From Promethearchaeota archaeon (GTDB taxonomy: Archaea > Asgardarchaeota > Lokiarchaeia > Sigyniarchaeales > SOKP01), in assembly GCA_048941265.1 (NCBI GenBank), contig JBHLNT010000020.1, positions 1 through 42,016 of the forward strand: a DNA stretch of 42,016 nucleotides. The letters are read 5' to 3'. The notes beneath the pieces were generated by a model that worked only from the letters and a program-made list of their open reading frames with translations, had not been told where the DNA came from and ran no database searches. Positions 2,959 to 40,202 of the stretch are shown here, piece after piece (position 1 is the first letter of the stretch; each line of letters opens with the position of its first letter). The position numbers and the translations under genes were made by a program.

Positions 2959-3020
2959 CCTTCATTAAATATTTGCTTAATGTATATTCATTAGCAATAA
3001 TATTAATTTCCAATGAATAA

Positions 3021-20448: not shown

Positions 20449-21909
20449 TTGAAAAACTACGATGTATTGTTTATTCATCCACCTAGATCGTTAAAACCTT
20501 ATAGCAAAAATGAAAAATTTAAACGAGGTGCTTATATTTTCATTCCAATGGGTGTTTTTGCTATTGCCGATTTCCTTGAGAAAGAAGGGTTTGGAGTTAG
20601 AATTTTAAATTATCCTTTAGAGCAATATCTCAATCGTAGTTGGAATTTAACGAATTATATTAAAAAAATCAATTTTAAGATATGCGCGATTGATTTACAT
20701 TGGATTCATAATTCTCATGGAGCTATTGAAGTTGCTAGAATTATAAAAAAAGTAAAACCTAATGTCAAAGTGATTCTTGGAGGTTTTAGCGCTTCATATT
20801 ACCATGATCAAATTTTAAAATATTATAAAGAAATTGATGGTGTAATTCGAGGAGAAGGCGAAGTTCCACTTTTAAAATATGTTGAAGAGATGAATCATCA
20901 TCAATCATTAGATTCTGTGCCCAATTTGTCTTATCGAGATTCCTTAAACCATCTAAAAGTTAATTCGCTTTCCTATACAGCAAAAACATTGGATAATTTA
21001 ACATTTACCAATGTGTCACTCTTACAAAATGCGAAACAATATTTTGAATATAGCCGGAAAATTATGGGAATCTCTTATAATCTTTCTATTGCAAGAGGTT
21101 GTCCATTCAATTGCCCTTATTGTGGAGGAGGTCAGCGTGCTCAGCGAATTTTATGTAATCGAAATAGGGTCATTTTCAGAAGTCCAAAGAAGGTAGTTGA
21201 AGATATCAGTAATATAATCGAAAAATTTAAAGTTCAAAGTTTCTTTTTTGGACATGGTACTTATCCTGCTAATTTAAAATATTGGAAAACATTATTCGGG
21301 TTGATTCAAAAAGAAAAGTTTGAGATTAGCGCAGATTTAGAAATTTATCGGCTTCCATATCCTAAAGAAATGTGGAAACTCTTCCGTAAAACTTTTAATC
21401 CCAGTTATTCATCAATTAGTATTTCTCCTCGAACCTTATCATCTAAAGTTCATCAGCAAATAGCTAAAATATGTGATCCGACTTTTAAATTCCCTAAAAG
21501 TCAAATTAATGATTTAATAAAAAATGCCAATTTATTCAGAACGAAATTAAGAATTTGGTTAACAATTGGTTTTCCTTTCCAAACACATTCTGATGTACTT
21601 AAAGATTTTACCTTTGCAACTAAATGTCTTTTAAAATATGGGAGATCTAATCTCAAACCAATTACTATTATGAGTGAACCTTATCATATTTTCCCTGGTT
21701 CTCCTGCCCATGAATCTCCAAAGAACTTCGGAATAAAATTAAAATATAATTCTTTTTTAGAGGTTGTCGAAGCTTTTAAACGATCTAAAATATCATTTTT
21801 TTATAATGTAATAAATTATGACACAAAACATTTTTCTGAAGCTTCGATTCGACATATAAATATGCTATTCTTTTTAACAGTTGCACCCATGTTCTTTACA
21901 AGTGGTTAA
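20449..21909 (+). CDS. Cobalamin-binding radical SAM protein (Ta0216/TIGR04190-like), paralog of 16281..17762
   Basis: DVLFIHPP, IDLHWIHNSHGAIEVA, GGFSASYY, RGEGE, RGCPFNCPYCGGG. Confidence 0.85.
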   Translation: MKNYDVLFIHPPRSLKPYSKNEKFKRGAYIFIPMGVFAIADFLEKEGFGVRILNYPLEQYLNRSWNLTNYIKKINFKICAIDLHWIHNSHGAIEVARIIKKVKPNVKVILGGFSASYYHDQILKYYKEIDGVIRGEGEVPLLKYVEEMNHHQSLDSVPNLSYRDSLNHLKVNSLSYTAKTLDNLTFTNVSLLQNAKQYFEYSRKIMGISYNLSIARGCPFNCPYCGGGQRAQRILCNRNRVIFRSPKKVVEDISNIIEKFKVQSFFFGHGTYPANLKYWKTLFGLIQKEKFEISADLEIYRLPYPKEMWKLFRKTFNPSYSSISISPRTLSSKVHQQIAKICDPTFKFPKSQINDLIKNANLFRTKLRIWLTIGFPFQTHSDVLKDFTFATKCLLKYGRSNLKPITIMSEPYHIFPGSPAHESPKNFGIKLKYNSFLEVVEAFKRSKISFFYNVINYDTKHFSEASIRHINMLFFLTVAPMFFTSG

Positions 21910-23691: not shown

Positions 23692-24486
23692 ATGGATAAA
23701 TGTAGCAAACTTAATAAATTGAAAATTATTTTGATTTTGATCTTTATTACATCATTTTTCTTAGTTTCATTAATATATGTGTTTTTAAGTGATATTCCCG
23801 TTTTAATTTCTTTATTAGATAAATATTTCTCCTCTGGAAAATCATTTTTTATTCCTTTTATACCCCCTATTAACGTTTTAAACTTTTTACCGGAAAAATA
23901 TCGAATAATCAGGTTAACCATTGGTCAGCTTATTGATATTTATATTATTTCCAATCTAATTGCTTATATCGATTCCAGTTTTTACCATTATCTTAAAAAT
24001 ATACGCCTGAATAGTGAGTCTTTAACTTTAACTTTAATTGACAATGACTCTTCTAAAGACGATAATGACTTCCGAATTCTACCTCAAAATCCCGGAATTA
24101 TCATTGGATCAGAGGATCAGTCAAAAAAAAAAATGAATTTTTCACATCTCGTATTTGGAAAAAAGAGGCAATATAATTTTAAGAATTATTTGCGTAAATG
24201 GATGGATAAAATAATTATTATAAAAAATAAAAAATTCAAAATTTTGTCTTTTAACCTTTATTACTTTTTGCGGGGTTTTTATAATTATTCTCTTTTTAAA
24301 GTACTTTCGTTTTTGCGTTTGAAAGATCATTATTCCCCTACCGAAATAAATTTTTCAGATACTTTATACCTTTTTTTCCAAGAAGAGGGGAATAACATGA
24401 AAAAAATATATCTATCCTTTGATTTTAAAAAGAAATTTAGAGTCAAACTAAAGGATATTAAAATTCTAAATAATTTCGAAAAATAG
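23692..24486 (+). CDS. Hypothetical protein with N-terminal TM/signal anchor
   Basis: 264-aa ORF in very AT-rich DNA ending 4 nt before the next gene; no family recognised. Confidence 0.55.
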   Translation: MDKCSKLNKLKIILILIFITSFFLVSLIYVFLSDIPVLISLLDKYFSSGKSFFIPFIPPINVLNFLPEKYRIIRLTIGQLIDIYIISNLIAYIDSSFYHYLKNIRLNSESLTLTLIDNDSSKDDNDFRILPQNPGIIIGSEDQSKKKMNFSHLVFGKKRQYNFKNYLRKWMDKIIIIKNKKFKILSFNLYYFLRGFYNYSLFKVLSFLRLKDHYSPTEINFSDTLYLFFQEEGNNMKKIYLSFDFKKKFRVKLKDIKILNNFEK

Positions 24487-24490
24487 GAAT

Positions 24491-25870
24491 ATGGTGAATA
24501 ATATGGAATGGAGTAATGAAATAAATGAATTGTTTAATAAAATTATGGCACTGACACCTGAAATGTTTCGCAAGTCTATAAAACCAATGTGGCGAGAAGC
24601 TGCTGAAAAGACAGCAAGGCTTAGAAATTCCGGTTATATAAGTAAAGATGATTTACTATCTTCTTTATTTGAGATTACTCCCGAAGCATTCAAACCCACG
24701 GTGGCAAATGATTTAAACAAATTAGGAATTGATACACAACGATATATCAAATTGTCTGAAATTAGGAAAAATTATACTCGTACTTGGGAAGAAATTAGTG
24801 GGGCATTTTTACCAGGAGTATATCATTTCACTATATATCTCACAGATCGATGCAACCAAAATTGTCTTCATTGTGCTGCCGCAGTCATGGAGAAACGTCC
24901 AGAATTTCCCACGGAAACTTGGATTGAAATTATTGAGGATCTTGAACAAAGCTTACGAAAACGCGGGCGTCGAGGTTGTTATATATGGTTTGGAGGAGAA
25001 CCTACTATACGTAAAGATCTTAAAGATTTAATAAAATATTGCGGTGAAAAGGGCTATTACCAAGCACTAGCAACAAACGGAATTTTATTTAATGAAAAAC
25101 TGGCGAAATTATGCGCAGATTTTAAGATGAGCCATGTTTTTATTAGTTATGATAGTACAGATCCTAAACGGGCTGCGAAAATTAGAGGGCATCCAAAAGC
25201 ATACGAAGCAGCGGAAAAAGCCCTAAATTTGACTTCAAAATATGGGCTTTTTACTATTGCTAATGTAACTGCACAAAAAGAGAACTTCGATGAATTAGAA
25301 GACTTACAAAAATATTTTGATTCTAAGGGCGTAATTCCCTTTTACAGACCCCTGATCAAACAACGTTCAGCGGATTTAAATTGGGACGAAATCGGCTTAA
25401 GCATGGATGAATATCGACAATTCTATGATTTTAAATATAAAAATGCTATAGAAGCCATCAGAAAAGGAGAAGCATCGGCTCTTAATAAATTCTATACATG
25501 GGATATGGTGCCATTCATGGAGTGTCCTTTAAATGATGAGGAAAGGACTGCGATCGAATGGGGTACAGGATGTCAAGCCTGCCGCTCAATTTCCGGGATT
25601 GATACCAATGGAGATGTATTCCCTTGCGATTATCCCTCTGAATTAACTTTAGGCAACATTCTTGAGCAAAGTTGGGATGAGATTATGGAAACCGAAATGT
25701 TCAAAAAAATTCGAGATAGAAAAATAAAAGGGAAATGTTCAACTTGTCATCATCTTGATTTATGTGGTGGGGGTTGTAGGGTTCATGCTGAAAACGTAAC
25801 TGGAGATTTTTTAGCGGCTCTCCCGTTTTGTTGGCATAAAAACGATCATGAGCATGAAAATTGTAAATAA
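24491..25870 (+). CDS. Radical SAM/SPASM protein with N-terminal PCP_red/DUF2621-like module
   Basis: CNQNCLHC, GGEPT, ATNG; SPASM GCQAC...GDVFPC...CSTC....CGGGC...C. Confidence 0.9.
   Translation: MVNNMEWSNEINELFNKIMALTPEMFRKSIKPMWREAAEKTARLRNSGYISKDDLLSSLFEITPEAFKPTVANDLNKLGIDTQRYIKLSEIRKNYTRTWEEISGAFLPGVYHFTIYLTDRCNQNCLHCAAAVMEKRPEFPTETWIEIIEDLEQSLRKRGRRGCYIWFGGEPTIRKDLKDLIKYCGEKGYYQALATNGILFNEKLAKLCADFKMSHVFISYDSTDPKRAAKIRGHPKAYEAAEKALNLTSKYGLFTIANVTAQKENFDELEDLQKYFDSKGVIPFYRPLIKQRSADLNWDEIGLSMDEYRQFYDFKYKNAIEAIRKGEASALNKFYTWDMVPFMECPLNDEERTAIEWGTGCQACRSISGIDTNGDVFPCDYPSELTLGNILEQSWDEIMETEMFKKIRDRKIKGKCSTCHHLDLCGGGCRVHAENVTGDFLAALPFCWHKNDHEHENCK
24503..24745 (+). repeat. Shared ~80-aa protein module, copy 1 (N-terminus of rSAM/SPASM 1)
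   Basis: MEWSNEINELFNKIMALTPEMFRKSIKPMWREAAEKTARLRNSGYISKDDLLSSLFEITPEAFKPTVANDLNKLGIDTQRY. Confidence 0.85.
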
Positions 25871-25883
25871 TGGGTGGATCTTA

Positions 25884-26126
25884 ATGGAATGGGAACCAGA
25901 AACAGAAAAATTATTTGCAAGAATAGTAGAAAAAATGCCAGAAGGATTTCGTCCTTCCGTTAAACCCATGATTATAGAAGCTGCGGAAAAAAGATGCCTT
26001 GAAAGAAATGCTGCTTATATTAATGATGCGGATGTAGTCTTAGGGATTTTTGATATTATTCCTGAAGCATTTAAATCAATAATGGTTGAAGATTTGACAC
26101 ATTTGGGAATTGATGTTGAGCGTTAT
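25884..26126 (+). repeat. Shared module, copy 2 (N-terminus of rSAM/SPASM 2)
   Basis: MEWEPETEKLFARIVEKMPEGFRPSVKPMIIEAAEKRCLERNAAYINDADVVLGIFDIIPEAFKSIMVEDLTHLGIDVERY. Confidence 0.85.
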
Positions 26127-27299
26127 ATAGAACTTAAAGATATTAAGGATCGACTTAACGTTTCATGGCAAAAACTAGAAAGAGGATTTCATCCCGGAAA
26201 TATTCATTTTGCTATGTATCTCACGGACAAATGCAATCAAAGATGCGTTCATTGTGCTGCTGATGATCTTGTGCCAAGACCAGAATTATCCGCAGATCAA
26301 TGGTATCAGATCATAGAAAATGTTGAAACTGGATTAAGAAAACATGGAAGAAATGCATGTTTTGTTTGGTTCGGGGGAGAACCTACATTAAGAAAAGATA
26401 TTGATAAAATCATGAAATTTTGTAAAGAAAAAGACTATATTCATGCTCTTATTACGAACGGTGTGAAATTTGATGAGAAGTTCGCTAAGATGTGTAAGGA
26501 AAATAATATTAGCCATGTATTTGTAAGTTTTGACAGTGCAGATCCGAAGAAAAATGATTATATTCGCGGATTCTCTAATTCATTAGGCTATGCGAAAAAA
26601 GCTATAGATCTCTGTTTGAAATATGGAATTTTTGTATGTTCTTCAATCACAATCATGAAACAAAATATTGATGAATTGGATAAGCTTAAAGAATTATCAG
26701 AAAAATGGGGTTCCCAACCCTATTTTAGATGTGTAGTCAAACAAAATCGAGCTGCTGAATATTGGGGAGAAATTGGACTTAGTCAGGAAGAATATAAAAA
26801 AATGTACGATTTTAAGTATAAACATGCTATTGAAACGATAAGAAGAGGTAAAGCAGGTACTCTACCAGCATATGAAATTTATGATATGGTTCCCTTTATG
26901 GAACAACCCAAAGATGATAAAGAAATGGCGGCAATCGAATGGGGTGTTGGCTGCTTAGCTTGTAGAACAATGATGGGAATTGGAATAGATGGAACTATAT
27001 ATCCTGCGGGATATCCTACAAAGTTAACGCTTGGGAACGCATTAAAGGATAATTTTGAAGATGTTTTAAATTCTCAACTCTATAAAGATATTCGTGATAG
27101 AAAGAAGATTAAAGGAAAATGTTCATCTTGCCATCATCTTAAATATTGTGGCGGCGGATGCCGCGTAACGGCAGAATATATCACAGGGGATTTTTTCGGG
27201 TCATTTCCATTCTGCTGGCACGAAAATGATCATGAACATGAAACCGATATTTCTCAAATAAAAGAAACCAAATTAATTGAAAAGAAATCTAATTTATAA
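25884..27299 (+). CDS. Radical SAM/SPASM protein, paralog of the upstream gene, same N-terminal module
   Basis: CNQRCVHC, GGEPT, ITNG; GCLAC...CSSC....CGGGC...C. The likely start is ATG 25884 (GGTGG upstream; MEW aligns with paralogs). Confidence 0.9.
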   Translation: MEWEPETEKLFARIVEKMPEGFRPSVKPMIIEAAEKRCLERNAAYINDADVVLGIFDIIPEAFKSIMVEDLTHLGIDVERYIELKDIKDRLNVSWQKLERGFHPGNIHFAMYLTDKCNQRCVHCAADDLVPRPELSADQWYQIIENVETGLRKHGRNACFVWFGGEPTLRKDIDKIMKFCKEKDYIHALITNGVKFDEKFAKMCKENNISHVFVSFDSADPKKNDYIRGFSNSLGYAKKAIDLCLKYGIFVCSSITIMKQNIDELDKLKELSEKWGSQPYFRCVVKQNRAAEYWGEIGLSQEEYKKMYDFKYKHAIETIRRGKAGTLPAYEIYDMVPFMEQPKDDKEMAAIEWGVGCLACRTMMGIGIDGTIYPAGYPTKLTLGNALKDNFEDVLNSQLYKDIRDRKKIKGKCSSCHHLKYCGGGCRVTAEYITGDFFGSFPFCWHENDHEHETDISQIKETKLIEKKSNL

Positions 27300-27317
27300 A
27301 TTAAGAGAAAAGAGAGG

Positions 27318-28742
27318 GTGAGTGTTTTGCGTGTATTAATCTTTTCTGGCAGTCGGGAGATAGTCCATGTAATGGTCCCACCTATAGGAGAAGCATATCT
27401 CGCAGCTTATCTTATGAGTAAGGGACATGATGTAAAATTGCTCGATTTAACCCTCAGTAATGATATTAAAAGAGATATTCCGAAAGCTATTAATGATTTC
27501 AATCCTCATTTAATTGGAATTTCAATTAGGAATGTTGATTCAACAACCTACCCTGGTAATTTATTTTTTTATCTTCCTGTTAAAAATCTTATTCAATATA
27601 TCAAACAAATTGCAGAACCCGAAATTCCAATAATTTTAGGTGGAGCTGGTTTTTCAATTTTTTCAGAAGAAATCCTTAGAGATTTAAACCATCATATCGG
27701 AGTAGTAGGCGAAGGAGAATATGTTTTTGCTGAAATACTAAAAAATCTCAAATTAAATATTGATATAAGGAAGATTGAGAAGGGTATATGTTTTATTGAT
27801 GATAACGGGAACTACTATCAGAAACCACCCTGGCGGGTTGAGAATCTAGATGTCCTTCCTATCCCTATACGAGAATTGATTGATAATGATGCTTACCTTA
27901 TTGATCCATTGAATAAAACAGGAGCAACTTGGGGGAATATTCAAACGAAACGGGGTTGCCATATGAATTGTATCTATTGCAGTTATAGATATATTGAAGG
28001 GTCTACTGTTCGTTATAGATCTCCGGCGAACATCGCTGAGGAGCTTGATTTAATGGTAAATAATTATGGAATAAAAAATATTTTTATTGTAGACAGTGTT
28101 TTCAATTTAGATTATAACCATTTAAAAGAAACTTGTCAAGAGATTATAAATCATAAAATTGAATGTAATTGGGGGGCAAATTATGTTCCGAGTAAGGACT
28201 TCATTGAACTAATACCCCTCATGAAAGAAAGTGGTGCCACACATTTCGCAACAGGCATAGAATCATTTTCAGAGGAAATGTTAAGAAGTATGAAAAAAAG
28301 TCGAACCCCCGATGAGGCTATCCTGACTTCACAGAAATGTGTGGAATTAGAAATTGAACAATTGATTCATATTATAGTAGGTGGTCCTGGGGAAACCCTT
28401 GGAACAGTTCGAGCTTCTTTTAACCAGTTAGAAACTATAAAAAGTTTTAGGGGGAACTTATGGCAAGGAGATGGAGATGTGATAGTATTTATCGGAATGA
28501 GGATCTATCCTCATACTCCTCTCCAACTTATAGCTGAGCAAGAAGGCGTAATTCAAAAGGGTGAGAACCTGCTAAAACCTAAATTCTATCTCTCTCCAAA
28601 GATCAGAGAGATTGATCTGTTTCAAGTAGTAAGAGAATATGGTGAAAATAATCCTAGATGGATGATGCCTGGGCTTGGCTTTAATAATCCGGAAGGATTT
28701 GCTGAATTGAGTCAAATTCAATTTGCGAAATATCAGAATTAA
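27318..28742 (+). CDS. Cobalamin-binding radical SAM protein (resembles the lipid-biosynthesis-associated subgroup)
   Basis: PPIGEAYLAA, GISIRNVDS, LGGAGFSIF, GEGE, QTKRGCHMNCIYCSY, VDSVFN, GGPGET, GMRIYPHTPL, LLKPKFY. Confidence 0.88.
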   Translation: MSVLRVLIFSGSREIVHVMVPPIGEAYLAAYLMSKGHDVKLLDLTLSNDIKRDIPKAINDFNPHLIGISIRNVDSTTYPGNLFFYLPVKNLIQYIKQIAEPEIPIILGGAGFSIFSEEILRDLNHHIGVVGEGEYVFAEILKNLKLNIDIRKIEKGICFIDDNGNYYQKPPWRVENLDVLPIPIRELIDNDAYLIDPLNKTGATWGNIQTKRGCHMNCIYCSYRYIEGSTVRYRSPANIAEELDLMVNNYGIKNIFIVDSVFNLDYNHLKETCQEIINHKIECNWGANYVPSKDFIELIPLMKESGATHFATGIESFSEEMLRSMKKSRTPDEAILTSQKCVELEIEQLIHIIVGGPGETLGTVRASFNQLETIKSFRGNLWQGDGDVIVFIGMRIYPHTPLQLIAEQEGVIQKGENLLKPKFYLSPKIREIDLFQVVREYGENNPRWMMPGLGFNNPEGFAELSQIQFAKYQN

Positions 28743-28791
28743 AAAATTAAAAAAAATAATTAAAAAAATCTAAAAGAAGGTTAATATATAA

Positions 28792-29034
28792 ATGGAATGG
28801 CAACCAGAAGTTAAAAAGCTTTTTGATAAAGTGGTCTTAGGAGTTCCAGAAATGGTAAGACCCGCTGTAGAACCAGCTCTTTTTGAAGCTGCGGAAAAGA
28901 AATGTGTAGAACGAAATGGGAAAGCAGTAGCTGAGGTAGACCTCGTTGTTGCATTGTTTGAGGTAACCCCTCCAGCTTTCCAACCAGTAATGATTGAGGA
29001 TTTAAATACTTTTGGAGTTGATTATGATAGATAT
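28792..29034 (+). repeat. Shared module, copy 3 (N-terminus of the prenyltransferase)
   Basis: MEWQPEVKKLFDKVVLGVPEMVRPAVEPALFEAAEKKCVERNGKAVAEVDLVVALFEVTPPAFQPVMIEDLNTFGVDYDRY. Confidence 0.85.
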
Positions 29035-29964
29035 CTAGCTAAAGTAAAATCGGATTTCAAATGCAATACCGACCTTGTTCAAATGGTCAAAGATCTTTTT
29101 AAAATTGGTGAAATCGTTGGAGTGGAATGTAATGAAAACGCGATCTGGAAGGTGCTAAAAAATTATGAGAAATTTTTCGCGGGAGCTCCTGTATCAATTA
29201 GAACTACAACTAAACCTCTTGAAAATAGAGATGTTTCGGTAAGATATGTAGAATTTTTTGTCCCTCATAATCCCGATCCTTATATAACAGCTATCAATGA
29301 AGGATTAATTGAAAAGAATGGACATCCAATCCATAAAATGATACGAGAATCAATAGAGACCTTTCAGATCATGGGATATGGTGTTGATTTGGATGTGAGA
29401 AAAGGATTATCAAAGATCTGGCCTTTTGTGGTTCCAGTATCAATTGAATCAATCTTTATGATGAAGAATATTCCTCCAAGTCTCAAAAAATATGAAAATT
29501 ATTTCAAAAAACATAGTCTTAATGTTTTTAGTCTTTTTGCATTTGATTTCTTCCATAATACTACCAACATCTATTTCATGCTTAAACAACCGCCTAAAGC
29601 AAGTTATAAGAACTGTGCATCACTTATCGAAGAATTGGGATTTGAAATTCCATCTAAAGAAATAATGGAAGGTTGTCGTAAGGCAGCACACCTCAATTAT
29701 ACGTTTAGCTGGGATTCAAAGAATATTGAGCGTTTATGCTTTGGTATAGCTGTAGATGATTTTAGAGAGGTGCCAATTCATCTGCATCCAGTTATGAAGG
29801 ATTTTGTCGAAAAAACCCCGCTCCAAAGTGAGAAAAAGAAATTTATCTGGGGGGTGACATTTACGCCCAATGGAATTTATTATAAGATCGAAAACGATTA
29901 TAACGGAACTATGATAGATTTCTTGGGGATGGGTTGTAAAGCCGGATTGGATACATATAATTAA
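28792..29964 (+). CDS. ABBA-fold aromatic prenyltransferase (NphB/CloQ/PpzP-type, PTase_Orf2) with N-terminal PCP_red/DUF2621-like module
   Basis: DPYITAINEGLI...GHP, YGVDLDVRKGLSKIWPF, DFFHNTTNIYF, YTFSWDSKNIERLCF, YYKIENDY. These match the ordered NphB-family motifs (DPY...GL...GHP; G.F.K.(Y/W).F; DY....VNLYF; TL.W....I.RLCF; YYKL..Y). Confidence 0.88.
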   Translation: MEWQPEVKKLFDKVVLGVPEMVRPAVEPALFEAAEKKCVERNGKAVAEVDLVVALFEVTPPAFQPVMIEDLNTFGVDYDRYLAKVKSDFKCNTDLVQMVKDLFKIGEIVGVECNENAIWKVLKNYEKFFAGAPVSIRTTTKPLENRDVSVRYVEFFVPHNPDPYITAINEGLIEKNGHPIHKMIRESIETFQIMGYGVDLDVRKGLSKIWPFVVPVSIESIFMMKNIPPSLKKYENYFKKHSLNVFSLFAFDFFHNTTNIYFMLKQPPKASYKNCASLIEELGFEIPSKEIMEGCRKAAHLNYTFSWDSKNIERLCFGIAVDDFREVPIHLHPVMKDFVEKTPLQSEKKKFIWGVTFTPNGIYYKIENDYNGTMIDFLGMGCKAGLDTYN

Positions 29965-30013
29965 ATTTATTTTTTTTGGTTTCAAAAAAAATAGTACGAA
30001 GAATGGTTAAAGA

Positions 30014-31165
30014 ATGAAATTTATAATTGATGGAGATTATAATAGAGATTTAATTTCCTTTTTTGAAAGAGAAAAATTACCAGTTACACATATGATTGTT
30101 CACGTACCAGCCAATCCTATTGGTAATAGTTCAATTTTTTTACCAAAAATTCTTCCCACATTTGAGGAATTTGAAGATTATACCAAAATTATTCAAGATT
30201 ACGGCATAGTTCCGATTGCTGGCATCGATTCCACATGCCAAGGAAACTTTGAAGCTCATGCTAAACAAAATGATGCAATTAATAGCTTATTTAAAAAATT
30301 ATCAAATTTGGGATATAAAGACATCCTCGTGTCTTCTCCGAATAATATCGGGGTTATTACAGCTAAGTTCCCAAAGATGAAAATTTTTTTATCATATTCC
30401 CAATGTGTCACTTCTTTAAATCGAGGAAAGATCTTTTTCAATTTAGGTGCCGATTATATAATTATTCATCCTGATGTAGTTAGATACTTTCCCACCTTAA
30501 GAAATTTCATTAAATTAAAAAAAAAAGAATTTAAATTTCGAGATGTAGATTATATTTTACCTTTAAACCTTGGATGTAATTGGGGATGCATTCACTGGTA
30601 TCAGCACCATAATTTGCAAAGTCATAGAACTATAAATTCTCCACTTAGTTACAATCAAGAAAAGATTTCTGATATTGCAAATGCATTTGATTATCCATTA
30701 TTATATTGCTGGAAAAAACGCCTTGAAGATCCTTTAAACCTCCTCAAAGAAGGATGGGTTTCCCCCACTAACATCGAATTATATGAAAATTTAGGTTTTG
30801 AGAATTATTTATTATTTTCTAGTAGCTTTTCAAATGAAAAAATTATAGAAATTCTTCACTCATATATAGATAAAACACTCAAGACTAATTTCAATGAATA
30901 CTTGAATTTCCCTCAACCATACGGAGACTATTGGCCAGGTGATAAAATTAAAAAGTCATTAAATTTGCTTGACCCTAATGTTATTACAGAATTTTGTAGA
31001 ACCTTTCCTTATGAAAATCATTATCCTTTCGAGAAAGAAATGAACGAATACTGCAATATATACTTAAAAAACCTAGGAGATGGAAAAATAAAAGAAAGGG
31101 ATAAGATTATCGAATTAATCACTAAAAGAATGCATACAATTGAAAAGGGGGTTTTAGAGGAGTAA
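30014..31165 (+). CDS. Divergent U32-family (peptidase U32/Fe-S hydroxylase-like) protein
   Basis: V.SLNR..F..LG; LNLGCNWGC..WYQHH..QSH...YC...WVSP...YE.LG aligns with the two downstream U32 paralogs, but the GGGR and FKIxGR motifs are absent. Confidence 0.7.
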   Translation: MKFIIDGDYNRDLISFFEREKLPVTHMIVHVPANPIGNSSIFLPKILPTFEEFEDYTKIIQDYGIVPIAGIDSTCQGNFEAHAKQNDAINSLFKKLSNLGYKDILVSSPNNIGVITAKFPKMKIFLSYSQCVTSLNRGKIFFNLGADYIIIHPDVVRYFPTLRNFIKLKKKEFKFRDVDYILPLNLGCNWGCIHWYQHHNLQSHRTINSPLSYNQEKISDIANAFDYPLLYCWKKRLEDPLNLLKEGWVSPTNIELYENLGFENYLLFSSSFSNEKIIEILHSYIDKTLKTNFNEYLNFPQPYGDYWPGDKIKKSLNLLDPNVITEFCRTFPYENHYPFEKEMNEYCNIYLKNLGDGKIKERDKIIELITKRMHTIEKGVLEE

Positions 31166-31169
31166 TATT

Positions 31170-33221
31170 ATGCGTATCTCTCTGGCCTGTAATTGGAAAT
31201 TAGATTTATTAAACTATATAGAAAATGAATATTCTTTAAAACAAAATCTGCATGATTTATATGGTACGCGTGATTTCAGTTTCAGCGGTTCAGGACGCCC
31301 TTTTTTTTTGATGCCAAAGAAACAAGAAGAGGAGATTGAGTCCTACATACATAAAGTACACGAGTTAAATTTGCGTTTTACGTGGTTATGGAATGGAGGA
31401 TGTATAGGGTATTTTAAATTCAATTCAAATGAGCAAACAAAAGCCCTTAAAGAATTAGATTGGTTAGATGATATGAATGTAGAATTTCTTACTGTATCTG
31501 ATCCTTATTTGGCTGAGTTTGCTAAAACCTATCATCCTAAGTTAAAGTTAAAAGTATCTGTAATTTCTGAGGTCAATTCTCTAACACGTGCTTTAGAATG
31601 GGAAGAAATAATTGGTAAGGATGGTGTCTTAACTTTATCCATAATGCTAAATAGGAATTTCCCTCTTCTCAAGGAAATTCGAAACGCTGTAAAATGCGAT
31701 ATTGAATTATTGACAAATGATTGCTGTTTATACGAATGTCCATTTCGATTTTTCCATTACACAGAATGCTCTCACGCTAGCCAGATAAATGATATATTAG
31801 AAGGTTATTATAACGATTGGGCTACAATGGCCTGTCAAAATCAAAAATGTTTCAATCCCGAACAAATTATCATGTGCCGATGGATTCAACCGTCAGATCT
31901 TGATAGTTATATCGACATCGGAATTGATTATTTTAAAATTTCTGGAAGAAGATATGGAACGAATTGGTTATATAGAACCCTAAAGGCATATAGTAGTAAA
32001 TCATATAAGGAGAATCTTGGGGAAATCTTCAATGGTTATTCCTTTGTCTCAGATCCTTTAGAATTAGCAGGAGCTCAATTCTCTGAATTTGCTGCTAAGC
32101 AAGAAAAAATGGGAGGAATTCCCGATGACCAGGGCATTATGTTAAGCGTGCCGGATTTTAAAGCGATATTAGAAGAAAAAAAATTACATAATTTCATTCA
32201 AAATTTTCCATATCAAGGAGCAAGGTGTAATGAAAATTGTGGGGTTACGTGCTTTTATTGTTATGAAATAGCTGAAAAAGCATATTCAATCCCATCAAAA
32301 TCTAACGCCGAATCCTATAAAAATTATATGAAATATCTTTATGATTATCTCAATGCTGGCGAGATGTTTTTGCCTAAAGAAAAAAGAAAGCTCAAAAGCC
32401 CTGTTAAAGAAATAGAATCAAATTCTTATACTGGAATTCCCTGGGAAGATGATGCCCGAGAATTTTTCCAAGAAGCTTTGATTTTAGTTCCTGAAAACAT
32501 GCAAAATGCAGCCAAACAAGGAATTGGATTTACTGCGGAAAGAACTGCAGAAAAACAAGGATTAAATTATGTTAATAAAGATTTATTAATCTCAATTTTA
32601 ATTCAATTAGTACCTCAATCATTCAAACACGATATTGTTGATTACTTAATAGAAAAAAATATCGAACTAACTCGGTTTATGAATGAGGATGATATAAAAT
32701 ATGCTAAATCTCTGCCGTATGGTACCGAAATCATGGCAAAAAAATCACAAGAAATGGATTTAGCAATTAACAATTCAAATATAATAAAAAATAGAACAGA
32801 AATCAATAAAGAAAAAGAGGTGAAAGTGTTAATGAATAGTAAAGAAGAATGGGAGGCGTATTTAACCCGCTTCATGAAAGCTTATAATGAGCTGCCCGAT
32901 TTGGCAAAGTTATTGGATCCAATAGCACCGTTAGTATTCCAATACATAATAGCGGATAGACCAGAGATGAATTACTGGCAATTTATTGAAAAAGACAAAA
33001 TGAATTGGGGAATGGGGGAATACTCTGGTCCTAATGCTCCGAAAATTATTCATAAAACGGATTTTGATACAATTAAAAAGGTTAATTCGGGTGAGTCTGA
33101 TCCTATCCAAGCTACGATGTCTGGAACTTATGTTGTGGAAGGTGATGTAACAAAGCTCATGGCTTGCGCTCCCTTGTTGCCGCTCAATGCAAAAGCCCAT
33201 CTTAAGGCAATTGAAAAATAA
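31170..33221 (+). CDS. U32-family Fe-S protein fused to a PCP_red/DUF2621-like module and a C-terminal SCP2 lipid-binding domain
   Basis: GSGRP, NDCCLYECPFR..HY..CSH, WIQP.DL..Y, FKISGR, CNENCGVTCFYC; module at aa ~423-503; SCP2-like VFQY...DFDTIKKVNSGESDPIQATMSGTYVVEGDVTKLM. Confidence 0.85.
   Translation: MRISLACNWKLDLLNYIENEYSLKQNLHDLYGTRDFSFSGSGRPFFLMPKKQEEEIESYIHKVHELNLRFTWLWNGGCIGYFKFNSNEQTKALKELDWLDDMNVEFLTVSDPYLAEFAKTYHPKLKLKVSVISEVNSLTRALEWEEIIGKDGVLTLSIMLNRNFPLLKEIRNAVKCDIELLTNDCCLYECPFRFFHYTECSHASQINDILEGYYNDWATMACQNQKCFNPEQIIMCRWIQPSDLDSYIDIGIDYFKISGRRYGTNWLYRTLKAYSSKSYKENLGEIFNGYSFVSDPLELAGAQFSEFAAKQEKMGGIPDDQGIMLSVPDFKAILEEKKLHNFIQNFPYQGARCNENCGVTCFYCYEIAEKAYSIPSKSNAESYKNYMKYLYDYLNAGEMFLPKEKRKLKSPVKEIESNSYTGIPWEDDAREFFQEALILVPENMQNAAKQGIGFTAERTAEKQGLNYVNKDLLISILIQLVPQSFKHDIVDYLIEKNIELTRFMNEDDIKYAKSLPYGTEIMAKKSQEMDLAINNSNIIKNRTEINKEKEVKVLMNSKEEWEAYLTRFMKAYNELPDLAKLLDPIAPLVFQYIIADRPEMNYWQFIEKDKMNWGMGEYSGPNAPKIIHKTDFDTIKKVNSGESDPIQATMSGTYVVEGDVTKLMACAPLLPLNAKAHLKAIEK
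32436..32678 (+). repeat. Shared module, copy 4 (between the U32 and SCP2 domains)
   Basis: IPWEDDAREFFQEALILVPENMQNAAKQGIGFTAERTAEKQGLNYVNKDLLISILIQLVPQSFKHDIVDYLIEKNIELTRF. Confidence 0.75.
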
Positions 33222-33257
33222 TGAAATCAAAATGAGAATAATTAAAAATAGTAAAAG

Positions 33258-34673
33258 GTGGAAAAAATTCAATTTCATGTAGCAACTAATTGGGACTTTA
33301 ACCTTATTGATGAGCTTGCTAAATATCCCGTGGCAAGTTTGTATGGTGTCGCAGATCACACTCTTGTAGGTGGAGGCCGTCCCTCATTCTTATTACAAAA
33401 AATATCAGAAGAACAAATTGCAGAATACATTAGAAAGGTTCATCAGAAAAAAATGCAATTTTCTTATTTATTGAATGCTCCCTGCATGAATAATATGGAA
33501 TACAATTCAGATTATCATAAAGAGCTCCTCAAATATATTCAATGGATCAGTGATATTGGAACCGATAATGTAATAGTTACTATTCCATTTCTAATACAGC
33601 TTATTAAGGAACAATTTCCTAAATTAAAAATACGCATATCGACCATCGCACATGTTAACAGTGTAAATCGGGCAAAATTTTATGAAATGCTAGGGGCACA
33701 TGAGATAACTCCTGATGTAATGATAAACCGTGATTTCCAGACATTGGAAAGAATTCAAAAAGCTTCTAAATGTAAGATTGTGTTACTTTTAACTGATGGG
33801 TGCTTATATCAATGTCCTTTTAGATATTATCACTATAATATATTAGGACATGCTTCTCAAACCCACCAACAATCCGAGCGTAATTATATCGATACATGCA
33901 TCTTAAATTGCAGTGTTATCAAATTTTCCGATCCTAAGGAAGTTATAAAAGCACGTTGGATTCGTCCTGAAGATCTATCCCACTATGAAGCTATTGGAAT
34001 TGAAGACTTTAAAATAGCAGGACGACGCATGTCGACGCAATGGATTGTCAGGGCAGTGAAAGCATTTGCCTCACGTGAATATCAAGGAAACTTAGTAGAT
34101 ATTATTCAAGGGTTCTCAATGTCATTTGGAGGTCTGGAACAAAAGGATCCGAACGTTAAAATAGGCCAAACACTTGGAAAAGAATCTAAATCTAAATTAA
34201 TCATAGACAATACGAAACTTGATGGCTTTATAGATTTTTTTAAAAAACAAAATTGTATTGCTATGTGTAATGAGTGTTCTTATTGTGATGAGTGGGCAAA
34301 AAAAGCAGTATTTCTGGATAAAGAAGAAGCTCCAAGATACGTTGAATCTTTAAAAAATTATCTTAAAGATATTATTACAAGCCGAGAATTCGGAGTAGTT
34401 TCAGAAAAAACTAAGGATGAGAAAAAAATAGGTTTAATTTGGGACCCTGAGACCGAAAGTATCTTTAACGAGTTAATCAATTTATCACCCCCTCAATTTC
34501 AATCTATGGCGAGAATGGCAATATCATCATTAGCAGAAGAAAAAGCGAAAAAAAGAGCATCAGGAGAAATTAATAATCAAGACATTGTTCAAGCATTCAT
34601 AGAAGGGACTCCAGGTCCGTTTCAAGCTGATATGAGAGAAGGTCTCAAAAAATTTGGACTTTTAAATGATTAA
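33258..34673 (+). CDS. U32-family Fe-S protein with C-terminal PCP_red/DUF2621-like module
   Basis: GGGRPS, LLNAPC, INRDF, DGCLYQCPFR..HY...GH, WIRPEDL..Y, FKIAGR, CIAMCNECSYC; module from aa ~393. Confidence 0.88.
   Translation: MEKIQFHVATNWDFNLIDELAKYPVASLYGVADHTLVGGGRPSFLLQKISEEQIAEYIRKVHQKKMQFSYLLNAPCMNNMEYNSDYHKELLKYIQWISDIGTDNVIVTIPFLIQLIKEQFPKLKIRISTIAHVNSVNRAKFYEMLGAHEITPDVMINRDFQTLERIQKASKCKIVLLLTDGCLYQCPFRYYHYNILGHASQTHQQSERNYIDTCILNCSVIKFSDPKEVIKARWIRPEDLSHYEAIGIEDFKIAGRRMSTQWIVRAVKAFASREYQGNLVDIIQGFSMSFGGLEQKDPNVKIGQTLGKESKSKLIIDNTKLDGFIDFFKKQNCIAMCNECSYCDEWAKKAVFLDKEEAPRYVESLKNYLKDIITSREFGVVSEKTKDEKKIGLIWDPETESIFNELINLSPPQFQSMARMAISSLAEEKAKKRASGEINNQDIVQAFIEGTPGPFQADMREGLKKFGLLND
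34434..34664 (+). repeat. Shared module, copy 5 (C-terminus of the last U32 protein)
   Basis: LIWDPETESIFNELINLSPPQFQSMARMAISSLAEEKAKKRASGEINNQDIVQAFIEGTPGPFQADMREGLKKFGLL. Confidence 0.8.
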
Positions 34674-34700
34674 TTTGTTTTTTTATTTATTTTTTATTTA
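34674..34700 (+). terminator. T-rich tract, putative archaeal-type intrinsic terminator of the operon
   Basis: TTTGTTTTTTTATTTATTTTTTATTTA directly after the stop codon, between convergent genes. Confidence 0.4.
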
Positions 34701-36587
34701 TTTATTATTTGAGAAGGAAATCGTCCAAGTTTTAAAAAAATTTGATATCGTTTCACATGCTGGTTTACGTGTACCATCAAGTCGTACTAAACCGAATCCC
34801 TTTTCACCACGATCTCTCCATTTATGGATAATTAATCCGCTAATAAAGATATCCTTTTCCAATAGGTTAAATACTTCTTTAAATGCATGCGATTGTGCCT
34901 TTTCATCATAAGTAAATTGTTCGAAGTCCTCTTGAAATTGAATAGGAATTGGTCCTGCTCTTATGGTATCGGTAACTGTTTGGAAACCCAATTCTGATAC
35001 GATGACAGGTTTTTTAAAGGTTTTTAGATATTGAATATTTTGACGGAATAGATGGGAGGCTCTAACAGAGGGACTGCCTTTAGGTGATACGATTCTTAAC
35101 CCTGGTAAGACTTCGATATACTTTAAAAATAAATCGCTGAAATAGAGGTTACAGCATATAATATCAAAGTGCTTCCAAGGGACATTTCGAAGTTCCCATG
35201 AGCCGGCAGCATATGAAACCATTCCGTCATAGTGGTTCCTAACTTTTTTACATAAATTTTCCAAATATGGGGTCAGTTTAGGTTGCTTTCTTCCGAGTTT
35301 CCCTATCTTGGCAAGAGGGGTAGCACCCAAACCCGGGACCATCTCTAAGCTAGATGGTGCAAATTGCGCAAAAAATTCATCATTCAACCTTTCCAAATGA
35401 CCAGATTTATCATCACTCAGTTCCAGAGTGAGTTCATTTCCGATACAAAAAATATCAATCCCAGCATTTTGGGCCCTTTGGGCATGATCCAAGCAAAAAT
35501 CTTCAAATTCATCATAAGTGAAAGATTTATCTAGGTGAGGTTTATCAAGCCCCCCAGGATAAATATATCTTGGGGAGAGAATAACGTTCAATCCAAGTTC
35601 TTTCGCTACTGATGCAAACTCATATACTCTAGTTTCAGGTCGCATAGCATCAAGTCGGATTGTATTAATATTCATTGAATGAATAACTTGCTGCAATTCG
35701 TCTTTAAATTCTTGAAGTTCCCTCGGAAACCATCCCATAGATTCATGCTGGAAATGTATACCTTTATAAAGGCCATAGAGACCCGCAAATGCATCTATTC
35801 GTTTTAATCCCTTGTTTATAAAGAGATCCATAAATCCTGGTACCATTTGAAAAGGTCTAGTCACCCAACCACTCAGTTCAAGAACAGTAGTTTTTTGTTG
35901 ACTTACAGCTTTTAATATTTCATCATGATTATGGATATCATCAAGATCAGGACCGACTAAATTGAAAAACCTACCAATATGATGGATCGTATGTGCATCA
36001 TCTCCTCCCAAAATGAACATTTGTGGTCTTAATTTAACAAGGGCAGAACACATATTGTTAAGGAAGGGGGGAAGATCCGCATGAAAAAATTCAATTCCAT
36101 CAAAGTTGAATTTAGAGATTTTTGATATCTTCAGTCCACCGAATGGTCTGAAAATTCCTTCAATGGGGTGGAATGGATGGGCAATGACAGCTAACCCTCC
36201 TTGCTCATGAATATCCTTAATAACATTTTTGATTGAGGGTTTCTCTTCTCCTTCAATAAGAATTTCAGTTTGTAAACCATAAGCGAGAACGCAACCATAA
36301 CTGCTGTCAATTTCCTCAGAACATAAATAGCCACAATCTGGGTATTTATCCTTAATATAGGTTTTTGCATACTCCGCCACTCGCATATTATTATGGTCGG
36401 TTAGAGCTATGAGATTTACTCCAAATTTAACAAGAGTATCAATAACCTCACGAAAATCAACCCCATCTGAAAAATTAGTGTGATTATGAGAGGAAAAAAT
36501 AATGTAACCTTCATTTTTTAATTGATTTAGCTCTTTTTGGCTAACTCTTCTAACACTAATTCCAGAATTAGGGTAAAATGTCGCCAT
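34698..36587 (-). CDS. PHP phosphoesterase domain fused to a clan GH-A-like TIM-barrel glycoside hydrolase
   Basis: HNHTNFSDG, ALTDHN, EE, AHPF, GGDDAH (PHP); C-terminal INTIRL, IGNEL (acid/base), VSYAA..WE, DIICCNLY, KPVIVSELGF (nucleophile), FGLV..DGTRKPA. Confidence 0.8.
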   Translation of the reverse strand: MATFYPNSGISVRRVSQKELNQLKNEGYIIFSSHNHTNFSDGVDFREVIDTLVKFGVNLIALTDHNNMRVAEYAKTYIKDKYPDCGYLCSEEIDSSYGCVLAYGLQTEILIEGEEKPSIKNVIKDIHEQGGLAVIAHPFHPIEGIFRPFGGLKISKISKFNFDGIEFFHADLPPFLNNMCSALVKLRPQMFILGGDDAHTIHHIGRFFNLVGPDLDDIHNHDEILKAVSQQKTTVLELSGWVTRPFQMVPGFMDLFINKGLKRIDAFAGLYGLYKGIHFQHESMGWFPRELQEFKDELQQVIHSMNINTIRLDAMRPETRVYEFASVAKELGLNVILSPRYIYPGGLDKPHLDKSFTYDEFEDFCLDHAQRAQNAGIDIFCIGNELTLELSDDKSGHLERLNDEFFAQFAPSSLEMVPGLGATPLAKIGKLGRKQPKLTPYLENLCKKVRNHYDGMVSYAAGSWELRNVPWKHFDIICCNLYFSDLFLKYIEVLPGLRIVSPKGSPSVRASHLFRQNIQYLKTFKKPVIVSELGFQTVTDTIRAGPIPIQFQEDFEQFTYDEKAQSHAFKEVFNLLEKDIFISGLIIHKWRDRGEKGFGLVRLDGTRKPACETISNFFKTWTISFSNNK

Positions 36588-36688: not shown

Positions 36689-37582
36689 CTAAAACAGGCT
36701 TTCTCGCGAGTCACTTTCATTCTCTTCTTTTATATCCATCTCATATTCATCAGGACAATACCTTATACCAATTGGTTCTAAAATGTGGATAATGGCTTCT
36801 TTAAACTCCTTTTTATTCAACTCTAATTTATTTTTTCCGTTTACTTCACGACTTTTCATATAATATCTTATTATATTAATACCATCTCGTACTGTATATG
36901 GTTCATCATGAATATGAGCATTTTGCAAAAAATCCACGCAATATTCTAATATCTCTTCGGAAGTGAAAGGAATATTATACGATATTATATTAATTTCATC
37001 AACTCTATTGGGAAATTCGACGAAAATTTTAGGTTGCAAGCGTGATGAAATATACTCCGGTATTTCATATGTACTACTATCACTATTCATTGTAACACAT
37101 AAACGAAAATCGGAATGCGCATAGATTCGAATACCCGCAATTATCGAATCAACATATCGCCTTTTATCCATTAGTGGTGCTAAAGAAGCCCAACTCTTTT
37201 CAGACATTCGATTTCCCTCATCTAAAAGACAAACTCCACCTTTAATCATTGCTGATACCAGAGAACTAGCAACATAGGCTATTTTATTATCAGAAGAAAT
37301 AACAGGGCTTATTAATAAATCTTCAGGGCGTGTATCCATAGTACATTGAAATATATATACAGATTTATTTAACCTTTTGCCAGTAGCATATGCCAATGTT
37401 GTCTTTCCAACTCCCGGCTTACCTAAAATTCTAGGATTTAAAGGAAGATCATTTTTATCTACAATCAACCAAGCCGCTTTTAATTCATTAATTATATCTT
37501 CATTACCAACCCATTGCATATCAACATCTGCAGGTTCTGAAAGAATTAATTCAACATCTGAAATTGTAACCTTCTCCGTCAT
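36689..37582 (-). CDS. MoxR-like/AAA_5 ATPase
   Basis: Walker A GKPGVGKT, Walker B LLDEGNR, FRLCVTMN, SRL. The likely start is ATG 37582 (MTEKV). Confidence 0.85.
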   Translation of the reverse strand: MTEKVTISDVELILSEPADVDMQWVGNEDIINELKAAWLIVDKNDLPLNPRILGKPGVGKTTLAYATGKRLNKSVYIFQCTMDTRPEDLLISPVISSDNKIAYVASSLVSAMIKGGVCLLDEGNRMSEKSWASLAPLMDKRRYVDSIIAGIRIYAHSDFRLCVTMNSDSSTYEIPEYISSRLQPKIFVEFPNRVDEINIISYNIPFTSEEILEYCVDFLQNAHIHDEPYTVRDGINIIRYYMKSREVNGKNKLELNKKEFKEAIIHILEPIGIRYCPDEYEMDIKEENESDSRESLF

Positions 37583-37776
37583 AAAAATCATTGGGCATTG
37601 ATTTATAAATAGTATATATTTAAATAATGAAAAATCGTCATAATATAGTTTTCTTTTCATGATAAAAGTCAAAATAATTGTGTGTAATGTTAACATGGAC
37701 ATTCTAGATTTACCTTAAATATAAAAATCTCAGCCACTAAATTAGTATATGAGAATATAAGACACTTTTAAGAAAA

Positions 37777-38943: not shown

Positions 38944-38958
38944 AATGGAGTAATTAAA

Positions 38959-39519: not shown

Positions 39520-39567
39520 AAAAGAATAATAACTCAAAAATCCAAAACTAAAGAAATAGGAGAAAAT

Positions 39568-40146: not shown

Positions 40147-40202
40147 ATAATTAAATATAATATAAAATAATATTATAAATCACAAGCTTAGGAATATTAA
40201 AA

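Follow-up and report, generated by a model that had tools for sequence, protein, structure and literature searches.

Why is one small module attached to five enzymes within a single archaeal gene block? This question was raised by a 42,016-nucleotide stretch of Promethearchaeota archaeon DNA (contig JBHLNT010000020.1, positions 1 to 42,016 of the forward strand), referred to here as the window, in which a module of ~84 residues occurs five times, each time fused to an enzyme. Judging from its predicted structure and its hosts, the module appears to be an autonomously folding, noncatalytic domain that marks the enzymes of one pathway. We tentatively regard it as a portable docking adaptor that would gather soluble enzymes around an intermediate held by an SCP2 carrier through a putative common partner. 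In this proposal, we infer the binding partner, the existence of the assembly, and the product of the pathway.

The module copies and their host enzymes

The modules are encoded in a block of eight co-directional open reading frames (ORFs) at positions 23692-34673, which are separated by 4-49 bp or overlap. This spacing and the common direction are consistent with an operon. The G+C content of the source genome is ~30%. The copies were recognized by alignment, Pfam, and a hidden Markov model (HMM) of the five copies; the copies and their host genes are all on the plus strand. Copies 1 (24503-24754), 2 (25884-26135), and 3 (28792-29043) are located at the N termini of two radical SAM/SPASM enzymes and a prenyltransferase, respectively. 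Copy 4 (32436-32687) is internal in a U32-SCP2 fusion protein, and copy 5 (34434-34670, 79 residues) forms the C terminus of the last U32 enzyme. These coordinates and placements agree with those of the original prediction, which had been made from the DNA alone. Its gapless alignment held for copies 1-4 over 84 columns, but copy 5 stops five residues early at the protein C terminus, and the tail motif G(I/V)D..RY was found in copies 1-3 but not in copies 4 and 5.

The identities of copies 2-5 to copy 1 are 50, 43, 27, and 28%, respectively, and eight columns are invariant across the five copies (W3, F11, P19, A34, E35, P60, F63, and L71). The likeness goes beyond chance, because each copy alone matches the family DUF2621 and the module recurs on orthologous proteins in 12 Asgard loci. 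In the window, the five-copy HMM detected exactly the five copies and found no module in the products of the genes at 27318 and 30014, the two proteins that had been described as module-less. In the whole genome, it detected one more copy; this sixth module is encoded on contig C80 by a paralogue of the U32-module-SCP2 gene, which is followed by a U32 gene. This locus (L006; G000 contig C80, positions 1-3004) is the end of a second, partial cluster, and its U32-module-SCP2 and U32 products are 74% and 77% identical to those of the window, respectively. The contig begins within the cluster and truncates the upstream gene. The locus may represent a genuine paralogous cluster, or it may derive from a second strain in the bin, for which contamination is 4.8%.

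Five module-bearing enzymes are thus present, as claimed, but they are of only three kinds, since the two radical SAM/SPASM enzymes are paralogues of each other, as are the two U32 proteins that bear the module. The radical SAM/SPASM enzymes are rSAM1 (24491-25870) and rSAM2 (25848-27299). The true start of rSAM2 is probably the ATG at 25884 (MEW...), because its orthologues begin at the module. Both enzymes exceed the Pfam cut-offs for Radical_SAM and SPASM (75.9 and 42.7 bits, respectively, for rSAM1), and CX3CX2C motifs were read in their translations (CNQNCLHC and CNQRCVHC). The NCBIfam models closest to rSAM1 were AhbD, AhbC, and NirJ (E values of 1e-39 to 1e-35, each below the cut-off). 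Neither enzyme reached an NCBIfam equivalog cut-off, the best match being AhbD with 136 vs 500 bits.

The product of the gene at 28792-29964 is a genuine aromatic prenyltransferase of the ABBA (Orf2/NphB) type, as judged from its profile, its PDB homologues, and the alpha-beta-beta-alpha barrel of its model. It matches Pfam PTase_Orf2 over residues 95-378 with 177 bits (cut-off 22). Its relatives in the PDB include 5ynt, AmbP3, AmbP1, 4ee6, and 1zb6 (E values of 1.7e-58 to 1.8e-37), of which 4ee6 is EpzP and 1zb6 is NphB. The solved ABBA chains align only from residue ~91 on, which is where the module ends. In the AlphaFold model of the full-length protein, ten strands alternate with helices, with a predicted local distance difference test (pLDDT) of 93.2 and a predicted template modeling score (pTM) of 0.88.

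The U32-module-SCP2 fusion (31170-33221) and the last U32 enzyme (33258-34673) match Pfam U32 with 35.8 and 48.2 bits, respectively (cut-off 22.4), and are 33% identical over ~500 residues, the module included. The last U32 enzyme also gave a weak match to NCBIfam TrhP. The SCP2 lipid-carrier domain of the fusion (32835-33218) scores 16.8 bits against a Pfam cut-off of 21.3, while the relatives P0147 and P0022 reach 45-66 bits. SCP2 is encoded by a free-standing gene (~128 residues in most relatives) in 10 of 12 related loci. Copy 4 is therefore internal because a U32 enzyme with a C-terminal module was later fused to the SCP2 gene. The U32 part of the fusion is confined to the window, loci L008 and L011, and the C80 paralogue.

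A divergent third U32-like protein of 383 residues, without a module, is encoded at 30014-31165. It has no Pfam match and was recognized by BLAST only (25% identity to the last U32 enzyme over 290 residues, E value of 1e-23), and its orthologues are confined to the window, L008, and L011. Of the 28 aligned U32 sequences, 26-27 have the core cysteines at about residues 77, 183, 187, and 219, and the 383-residue protein retains all four. Their spacing differs from the CX6CX15CX3/4C pattern given in PMC6747719. Another cysteine motif, CX3CX2CX2C, was observed in 26 of the 28 sequences (residues ~334-344 in the last U32 enzyme). It lies ~50 residues upstream of the module and may be a second iron-sulfur or zinc site; the 383-residue paralogue keeps only its last cysteine.

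The remaining products of the cluster also lack the module. The block opens with a small membrane protein (23692-24486) that matches no Pfam family. Its hydrophobic N-terminal part of ~100 residues is kept in eight related loci, and its tail is not conserved. The gene at 27318-28742 encodes a B12-binding radical SAM enzyme by Pfam, and its closest NCBIfam models are the ladderane-lipid model TIGR04072 (262 bits) and BzaD (198 bits), both below the cut-off. Upstream of the block, the gene at 20449-21909 (plus strand) encodes a B12-binding radical SAM protein of the Ta0216 family (Pfam B12-binding and Radical_SAM), which scores 269 bits against NCBIfam TIGR04190 and does not reach the cut-off of 500 bits.

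Spread and fold of the module

We searched 1.84 billion representative proteins with the five-copy profile at an E value of ≤1e-3. The profile retrieved 257 proteins, 71 of them at ≤1e-10. Lengths were judged on the best 150 of the 257 matches, 80 of which were ≤130 residues and 70 longer. Most relatives of the module are free-standing proteins of ~85-95 residues, some of which are possibly gene fragments. A Pfam scan of the 70 long matches (longer than 130 residues) identified PTase_Orf2 in 14, Peptidase_U32 in 13, Radical_SAM in seven, SPASM in six, SCP2 in six, and 2Fe-2S_thioredx (NuoE-like) in three. The NuoE-like [2Fe-2S] proteins are named NADH-quinone oxidoreductase subunit E and have two module-like stretches each. 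Two module-bearing prenyltransferases came from metagenome-assembled genomes (MAGs) of Deltaproteobacteria.

A closer look at ten of the long matches revealed further architectures: an HpaB-type aromatic hydroxylase with a C-terminal module (P0089), a module with a class-I methyltransferase (P0113), a LuxC-module-rSAM/SPASM protein (P0044), U32-module-module tandems (P0037 and P0092), and a U32-PCP_red-SCP2-SCP2-module protein (P0022). Moreover, the module is C-terminal in the prenyltransferases P0009 and P0013 and follows SCP2 in P0065 and P0083. In total, it was found on at least six unrelated catalytic folds, in addition to SCP2 and a ferredoxin-like domain. Four TPR/STAND giants (P0054, P0067, P0102, and P0132), with 7-10 short stretches each, were set aside as probably spurious helical-repeat matches. 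These results support the proposed reuse independent of position: the module is N-terminal on radical SAM/SPASM enzymes, N- or C-terminal on prenyltransferases, and C-terminal on U32 enzymes, and stands before or after SCP2. In its fused forms, the module is not scattered over unrelated housekeeping proteins but is strongly enriched on a small set of enzyme families, both in this cluster and across taxa.

The cluster as a whole is conserved in 12 Asgard loci, where orthologous genes carry the modules. The source organism is an Asgard archaeon of Loki type, and its closest relatives are Promethearchaeota, Hermodarchaeota, and Hodarchaeota MAGs. Nine loci span the cluster, and their gene order is Ta0216-family B12-binding radical SAM protein, membrane protein, rSAM1, rSAM2, second B12-binding radical SAM enzyme, prenyltransferase, SCP2, and U32. 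The first of these genes is found in all nine related loci extending that far, and the orthologue of the gene at 27318 in seven of the nine loci spanning that position. In all nine loci, rSAM1, rSAM2, the prenyltransferase, and the U32 enzyme bear the module. SCP2 and U32 are swapped in L018, and no match to the membrane protein was found in L014. Genes for a CDP-alcohol phosphatidyltransferase and a GT2 glycosyltransferase are nearby in six of the nine loci.

The module is present in 52 of 400 genomes of the phylum (15 of 90 high-quality genomes) and in 39 of 134 genomes of the family of the window; nearly all other carriers belong to the same class. Among the matches listed, 4-5 copies usually lie within ~10 kb on one contig. 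In a tree of 49 modules from 13 clusters, the modules formed five clean clades according to host enzyme. Module identity among orthologues is 58-76%, while that of the remainder of each protein is 64-80%. Identities near those of the catalytic parts, together with the host-wise clades, indicate that the fusions are old and that the module is under purifying selection. SCP2 is the best-conserved product of the cluster, with a mean column identity of 84% (13 sequences).

Two variations on this arrangement were also observed. Tandem module-bearing prenyltransferase genes are present in L010 (8562-11170) and L011 (3-2341), whose products are 58% and 71-73% identical to that of the window, respectively; the prenylation step is duplicated in these loci. 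In L107 (G261 contig C13, 7534-9295), a free-standing U32-type module of 83 residues, 74% identical to copy 5, is encoded outside the main cluster of that genome. The gene 38 bp upstream of it encodes a paralogue of the Ta0216-family protein of the window (68% identity). The module either acts in trans with this B12-binding radical SAM protein or is the remnant of a broken U32 gene.

We modeled the structure of copy 2 with AlphaFold from 66 sequences. The model is a five-helix bundle (pLDDT 94.5, pTM 0.84) in which the order strand, helix, Pro, helix occurs twice before a short fifth helix, with a single two-residue strand pair. The internal duplication proposed earlier from a motif occurring twice in each copy is plausible but only weakly suggested by hhalign of the two halves (59% probability, E value of 9.4e-5), which places P19 on P60 and F22 on F63. 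The modules are acidic, with mean net charges of -2.6 to -7.1 and isoelectric points of 4.6-5.5. They have no cysteine and no conserved nucleophile, and none of their conserved residues is a Cys, Ser, or Lys to which a cofactor could be attached.

Each copy alone matched DUF2621 (PF11084) with E values of 1.5e-5 to 0.013 over profile positions ~55-137 of 139; over all profile comparisons, the scores were 14.5-26.5 bits, with E values up to 0.09. None reached the gathering score, the best copies scoring 25.4-26.5 vs 27.7 bits. Four of the five copies matched only from profile position ~53-57, leaving the first ~54 positions without a counterpart, and the sole match that reached position 12 crosses two stop codons upstream of the gene. 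In full DUF2621 proteins, the additional N-terminal part is a membrane helix. Thirty of the 70 long relatives matched DUF2621 at an E value of ≤1e-3. The closest ESM-Atlas clusters consist of bacterial proteins of 78-89 residues, and in two of the top three, DUF2621 is found on a minority of members (scores of 0.77-0.78, taken as leads). We found no literature on DUF2621.

The relation to PCP_red (PF08369), the C-terminal domain of BchB/ChlB with the solved examples 2kru and 2l09, is more distant. Copy 1 alone matched this family (E value of 0.12, 12.9 bits vs a cut-off of 32.5), as did two of the 70 long relatives at an E value of ≤1e-3. The N-terminal half of the module follows the pattern W..E...(L/F)......P.F.R, as does PCP_red. 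The free-standing PCP_red structure 2l09 aligned to the module model with a Z score of 6.2 and a root-mean-square deviation (rmsd) of 3.3 over 57 of 62 residues, which is within the range of unrelated helical proteins; 2kru was not among the listed structural matches. A profile search of PDB sequences gave E values of 0.07-0.5 only (histone, 2kru, and 2l09, with 0.4-0.5 for the latter two). The likeness to both families put forward in the original prediction is thus real for DUF2621, although below the cut-off, and weak for PCP_red. We therefore regard the module as divergently related to the DUF2621 C-terminal half and as PCP_red-like in its first half; it is a formal member of neither family.

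Foldseek against the PDB returned nothing at an E value of ≤1e-3, and BchB/ChlB chains were absent from the listed Foldseek and exhaustive structural-alignment matches. The top matches of the exhaustive alignment were AAA+ lids, namely those of BchI (1g8p; Z score of 7.9, rmsd 3.0, 72 aligned residues) and of MCM, Rpt3, RuvBL, and FtsH (Z scores of 6-7.8). Z scores up to 7.9 are in the range that the alignment tool calls common for helical models. Unlike an AAA+ lid, the module has no adjacent ATPase domain in any of the five hosts, and sequence identity is 5-18%; the likeness is probably only one of common helix arrangement. A histone fold was also considered and rejected, since its matches (profile E value of 0.074 for 1f1e; Z scores of 5.3-6.3 for H2B) were no better than other helical ones.

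The sole above-threshold PCP_red domain of the genome (52 bits) is found elsewhere, near the C terminus of a 486-residue protein encoded on the minus strand (L020; G000 contig C233, 1216-2676). The five-copy profile misses it, and an ABC-type ATPase-like gene adjoins. From its sequence, this protein looks like a tandem universal-stress protein.

The proposed pathway and the role of the module

The gene content suggests that the cluster encodes an oxygen-independent pathway whose product is an aromatic lipid that is prenylated, hydroxylated, and probably methylated, travels on SCP2, and is possibly quinone-like. The enzyme set would comprise the ABBA prenyltransferase, two AhbD/NirJ-like radical SAM/SPASM enzymes, B12-binding radical SAM enzymes, UbiU/UbiV-like U32 hydroxylases, and a UbiT-like SCP2 carrier. 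According to PMC6747719, UbiU and UbiV are U32 [4Fe-4S] hydroxylases that act independently of oxygen and work with the SCP2 protein UbiT. The same paper describes a ubiT-ubiU fusion followed by ubiV in Zymomonas, and the SCP2 protein UbiJ as the organizer of the multienzyme Ubi complex of Escherichia coli, in which hydroxylases and methyltransferases assemble around UbiJ; UbiT, UbiU, and UbiV are its anaerobic counterpart. Pelosi et al. found the joint occurrence of ubiTUV to be restricted to Proteobacteria. The abstract of PMC10990095 names prephenate as an organic oxygen donor, and chorismate mutase, the source of prephenate, is encoded in the genome.

The cluster resembles the Ubi and UbiTUV systems in its SCP2 carrier and in its paired U32 proteins with four conserved cysteines. 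The succession of an SCP2-U32 fusion and a second U32 protein also recalls the ubiT-ubiU and ubiV genes of Zymomonas described in PMC6747719. Unlike the Ubi system, it has a soluble ABBA prenyltransferase instead of the membrane protein UbiA, and radical SAM/SPASM and B12-binding radical SAM enzymes are present in addition. We found no literature on aromatic prenyltransferases in Lokiarchaeota or on U32 proteins in Asgard archaea.

Two other classes of substrate were considered. A tetrapyrrole was suggested by the PCP_red likeness, the AhbD/NirJ-like radical SAM enzymes, and the fold match to BchI. However, no ALAD (HemB) gene was found in the 91%-complete genome, which argues against a home-made tetrapyrrole substrate; the radical SAM enzymes are far below the equivalog cut-offs, and the BchI match concerns its generic AAA+ lid. 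A tetrapyrrole was therefore set aside. For a peptide substrate, we looked for precursor genes. No conserved small ORF outside the known genes was found in the window and the 12 loci, each conserved small ORF being an alternative SCP2 frame, which argues against a peptide.

As a docking adaptor, the module would be tethered to its host by linkers of ~10-55 residues and would work in trans as a protein-protein docking unit, binding a common partner that may be another module or an SCP2-centered hub. In this way, soluble enzymes with unrelated folds would be kept close to the greasy intermediate on its carrier, much as the Ubi enzymes of E. coli are gathered around UbiJ. The linkers of the U32 proteins are rich in Lys and Glu, and that of the prenyltransferase has the lowest internal pLDDT of its model (82, residues 81-90). 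We favor docking because the tagged enzyme classes (hydroxylases, a methyltransferase, and a prenyltransferase) parallel ubiquinone synthesis and mirror the Ubi complex, because the tag is in some cases also borne by the carrier and by an electron-transfer protein, which fits an assembly tag better than a substrate lid, because tandem modules exist, and because many polar residues are common to the modules of rSAM1, rSAM2, and the prenyltransferase (43-50% identity) although the hosts are unrelated in fold. The conservation of SCP2, the highest in the cluster, is as expected of a hub. Prediction of a complex between the SCP2 domain and the module gave scores of 0.10 and 0.01 vs a mark of 0.32; it was run without controls and counts neither way.

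Several observations weigh against docking. The residues common to the five module classes (W3, P19, E35, P60, F63, L71, and hydrophobic positions) are essentially fold determinants, and we see no surface patch that the U32-type modules share with those of the rSAM and prenyltransferase type. The SCP2 carrier is without a module in the majority of Asgard clusters, where it would need another route into the assembly. Most relatives, moreover, are free-standing small proteins. Among these, a P0148-like bacterial subfamily, with 80 metagenome loci that are close relatives and represent a single lineage, has neighbors unrelated to the chemistry of the cluster (Wzy_C, a DUF3192-like protein, a class-III aminotransferase, and a P-type ATPase). 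The pTM of the full-length prenyltransferase model hints that the module may pack on the barrel of its own host. Finally, the only role documented near PCP_red is that of covering a substrate cavity (PMC4071322).

This last role underlies the main rival explanation, unlikely in our view yet deserving serious consideration, namely that the module is a lid for substrate or carrier recognition. It would close over the open barrel of its own host or of a partner and recognize the constant greasy part of the intermediate, as in BchB, whose C-terminal helix covers the hydrophobic cavity for protochlorophyllide in dark-operative protochlorophyllide oxidoreductase (DPOR), according to PMC4071322. The passages on DPOR in 10.1101/2020.03.31.018135 and 10.1101/2025.02.17.634645 contained nothing useful on this domain of BchB. 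A lid would agree with the weakly PCP_red-like N-terminal half of the module, with the alignment to 2l09, and with the high pTM of the prenyltransferase modeled together with its module. The three main host folds are open-ended barrels, and class-specific surfaces on a common core would fit co-adaptation to each host. However, a lid would not be expected to be portable to at least six unrelated catalytic folds at either terminus, and fusions to SCP2 and to NuoE-like ferredoxin domains would be hard to explain. The 84-residue bundle itself lacks a cavity, the score against PCP_red is far under the Pfam cut-off, and the shared polar residues of the rSAM and prenyltransferase modules are retained despite the unrelated hosts. 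That same prenyltransferase model, the ancient and class-specific nature of the fusions, and the restriction of common residues to those that determine the fold could also be explained by a structural or regulatory extension acting in cis without a common partner, a stable fold recruited several times to stabilize or solubilize enzymes. We consider this improbable, as a fold so rare (257 of 1.84 billion proteins) yet concentrated on one pathway, usually with 4-5 copies per cluster, would be unexpected for a generic stabilizer, and the solved ABBA prenyltransferases manage without the module.

Recruitment to a third party, either the membrane, possibly via the 23692 protein, or a common electron donor, would account for the conserved small membrane protein that opens the cluster and for the NuoE-like [2Fe-2S] fusions, and would fit the membrane helix of full DUF2621 proteins. 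Nevertheless, peripheral membrane binders are not typically acidic as these modules are, conservation of the membrane protein is poor in its tail, and the prenyltransferase bears a module yet needs no electrons; we give this explanation little credence. The original prediction had also drawn an analogy to the recognition element (RRE) of ribosomally synthesized and post-translationally modified peptide (RiPP) pathways, in which the module would bind a leader peptide and the radical SAM/SPASM, B12-binding radical SAM, and prenyltransferase proteins would tailor the peptide. In many RiPP maturases, the RRE is N-terminal to the radical SAM/SPASM core, as the module is here, and MftC, PqqE, and peptide maturases were among the weaker NCBIfam matches of the radical SAM hosts. 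In the strict sense, however, the analogy fails: the predicted five helices and two-residue bridge differ from the winged helix and three-stranded sheet of the PqqD type, the 13 clusters contain no conserved small ORF for a precursor, and the U32 and SCP2 partners point to a lipid rather than a peptide. We therefore hold a leader-peptide binder to be extremely improbable.

Compared with these explanations, the docking adaptor remains the one that we tentatively prefer. In a bolder form, which we put forward as a doubtful proposal, the module would be a genetically encoded metabolon tag that associates with itself or with other modules and recruits any fused protein into one soluble, carrier-centered assembly. 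The product of this assembly in Asgard archaea and some Deltaproteobacteria would be a prenylated aromatic compound of quinone-like nature, not yet described and formed without oxygen.

Surroundings of the cluster and significance of the module

Upstream of the cluster, positions 1492-23414 form a wider island rich in genes of lipid or glycolipid type. In addition to the Ta0216-family gene at 20449, B12-binding radical SAM genes start at 1492, 3021, 16281, and 22008, and another radical SAM gene at 10597. The island further encodes a sulfotransferase (4791), a polysaccharide deacetylase (5985), alpha/beta hydrolases (7002 and 9797), GT2 glycosyltransferases (7814, 11609, and 17860), a hexapeptide acyltransferase (8710), a LuxE-like acyl-protein synthetase (13285), and a CDP-alcohol phosphatidyltransferase (19299). 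The LuxC-module-rSAM fusion P0044 may tie chemistry of the LuxE/LuxC type to the pathway.

Downstream, a convergent gene on the minus strand (34698-36587) encodes a 629-residue protein with an N-terminal PHP domain and a C-terminal GH113-like glycoside hydrolase domain; it is kept beside the cluster in L019 (79% identity). The regions 36689-38316 and 38515-40751 contain a gene for an AAA_5 (MoxR/dynein-type) ATPase (36689, minus strand), then one for a Ras-family small GTPase (37777, 164 bits), and, downstream, several further ORFs of ~140-190 residues. L019 has two Ras-like genes at the same place. Such an arrangement is typical of Asgard genomes.

Among known systems, the module can be compared with several small accessory elements. 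Like PCP_red on BchB, it is a tethered accessory element on iron-sulfur enzymes, but PCP_red has 45 profile positions, about half the length of the module, and no tetrapyrrole link is apparent here, no ALAD gene having been found in the 91%-complete genome. Unlike DUF2621, the module is fused to enzymes. It shares with RREs and with the docking domains of polyketide synthases and nonribosomal peptide synthetases the principle of small noncatalytic units on several enzymes of one pathway that engage a common partner; unlike those of such docking domains, its hosts are stand-alone enzymes and not megasynthase modules. We know of no description of a common docking domain in Ubi proteins. The module may therefore be viewed as a pathway-wide accessory domain that follows the logic of docking domains and RREs and is built on a DUF2621/PCP_red-like fold.

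If this is true, the module would serve as a sequence marker by which the enzymes of a hitherto undescribed prenyl-aromatic pathway, independent of oxygen, could be found in Asgard archaea and some bacteria. Prenyltransferases, U32- and HpaB-type hydroxylases, a methyltransferase, radical SAM enzymes, and SCP2 carriers have already been retrieved with it. The module would also provide a function for the DUF2621/PCP_red-like fold, which is at present without one, and a tractable model for the way in which soluble enzymes handle a greasy intermediate. To our knowledge, the way in which the ubiquinone metabolon recruits enzymes to its SCP2 hub has not been settled, and a discrete docking domain would make this question testable. 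An oxygen-independent quinone-like lipid in Loki-type Asgard archaea would, in turn, bear on the bioenergetics of these organisms.

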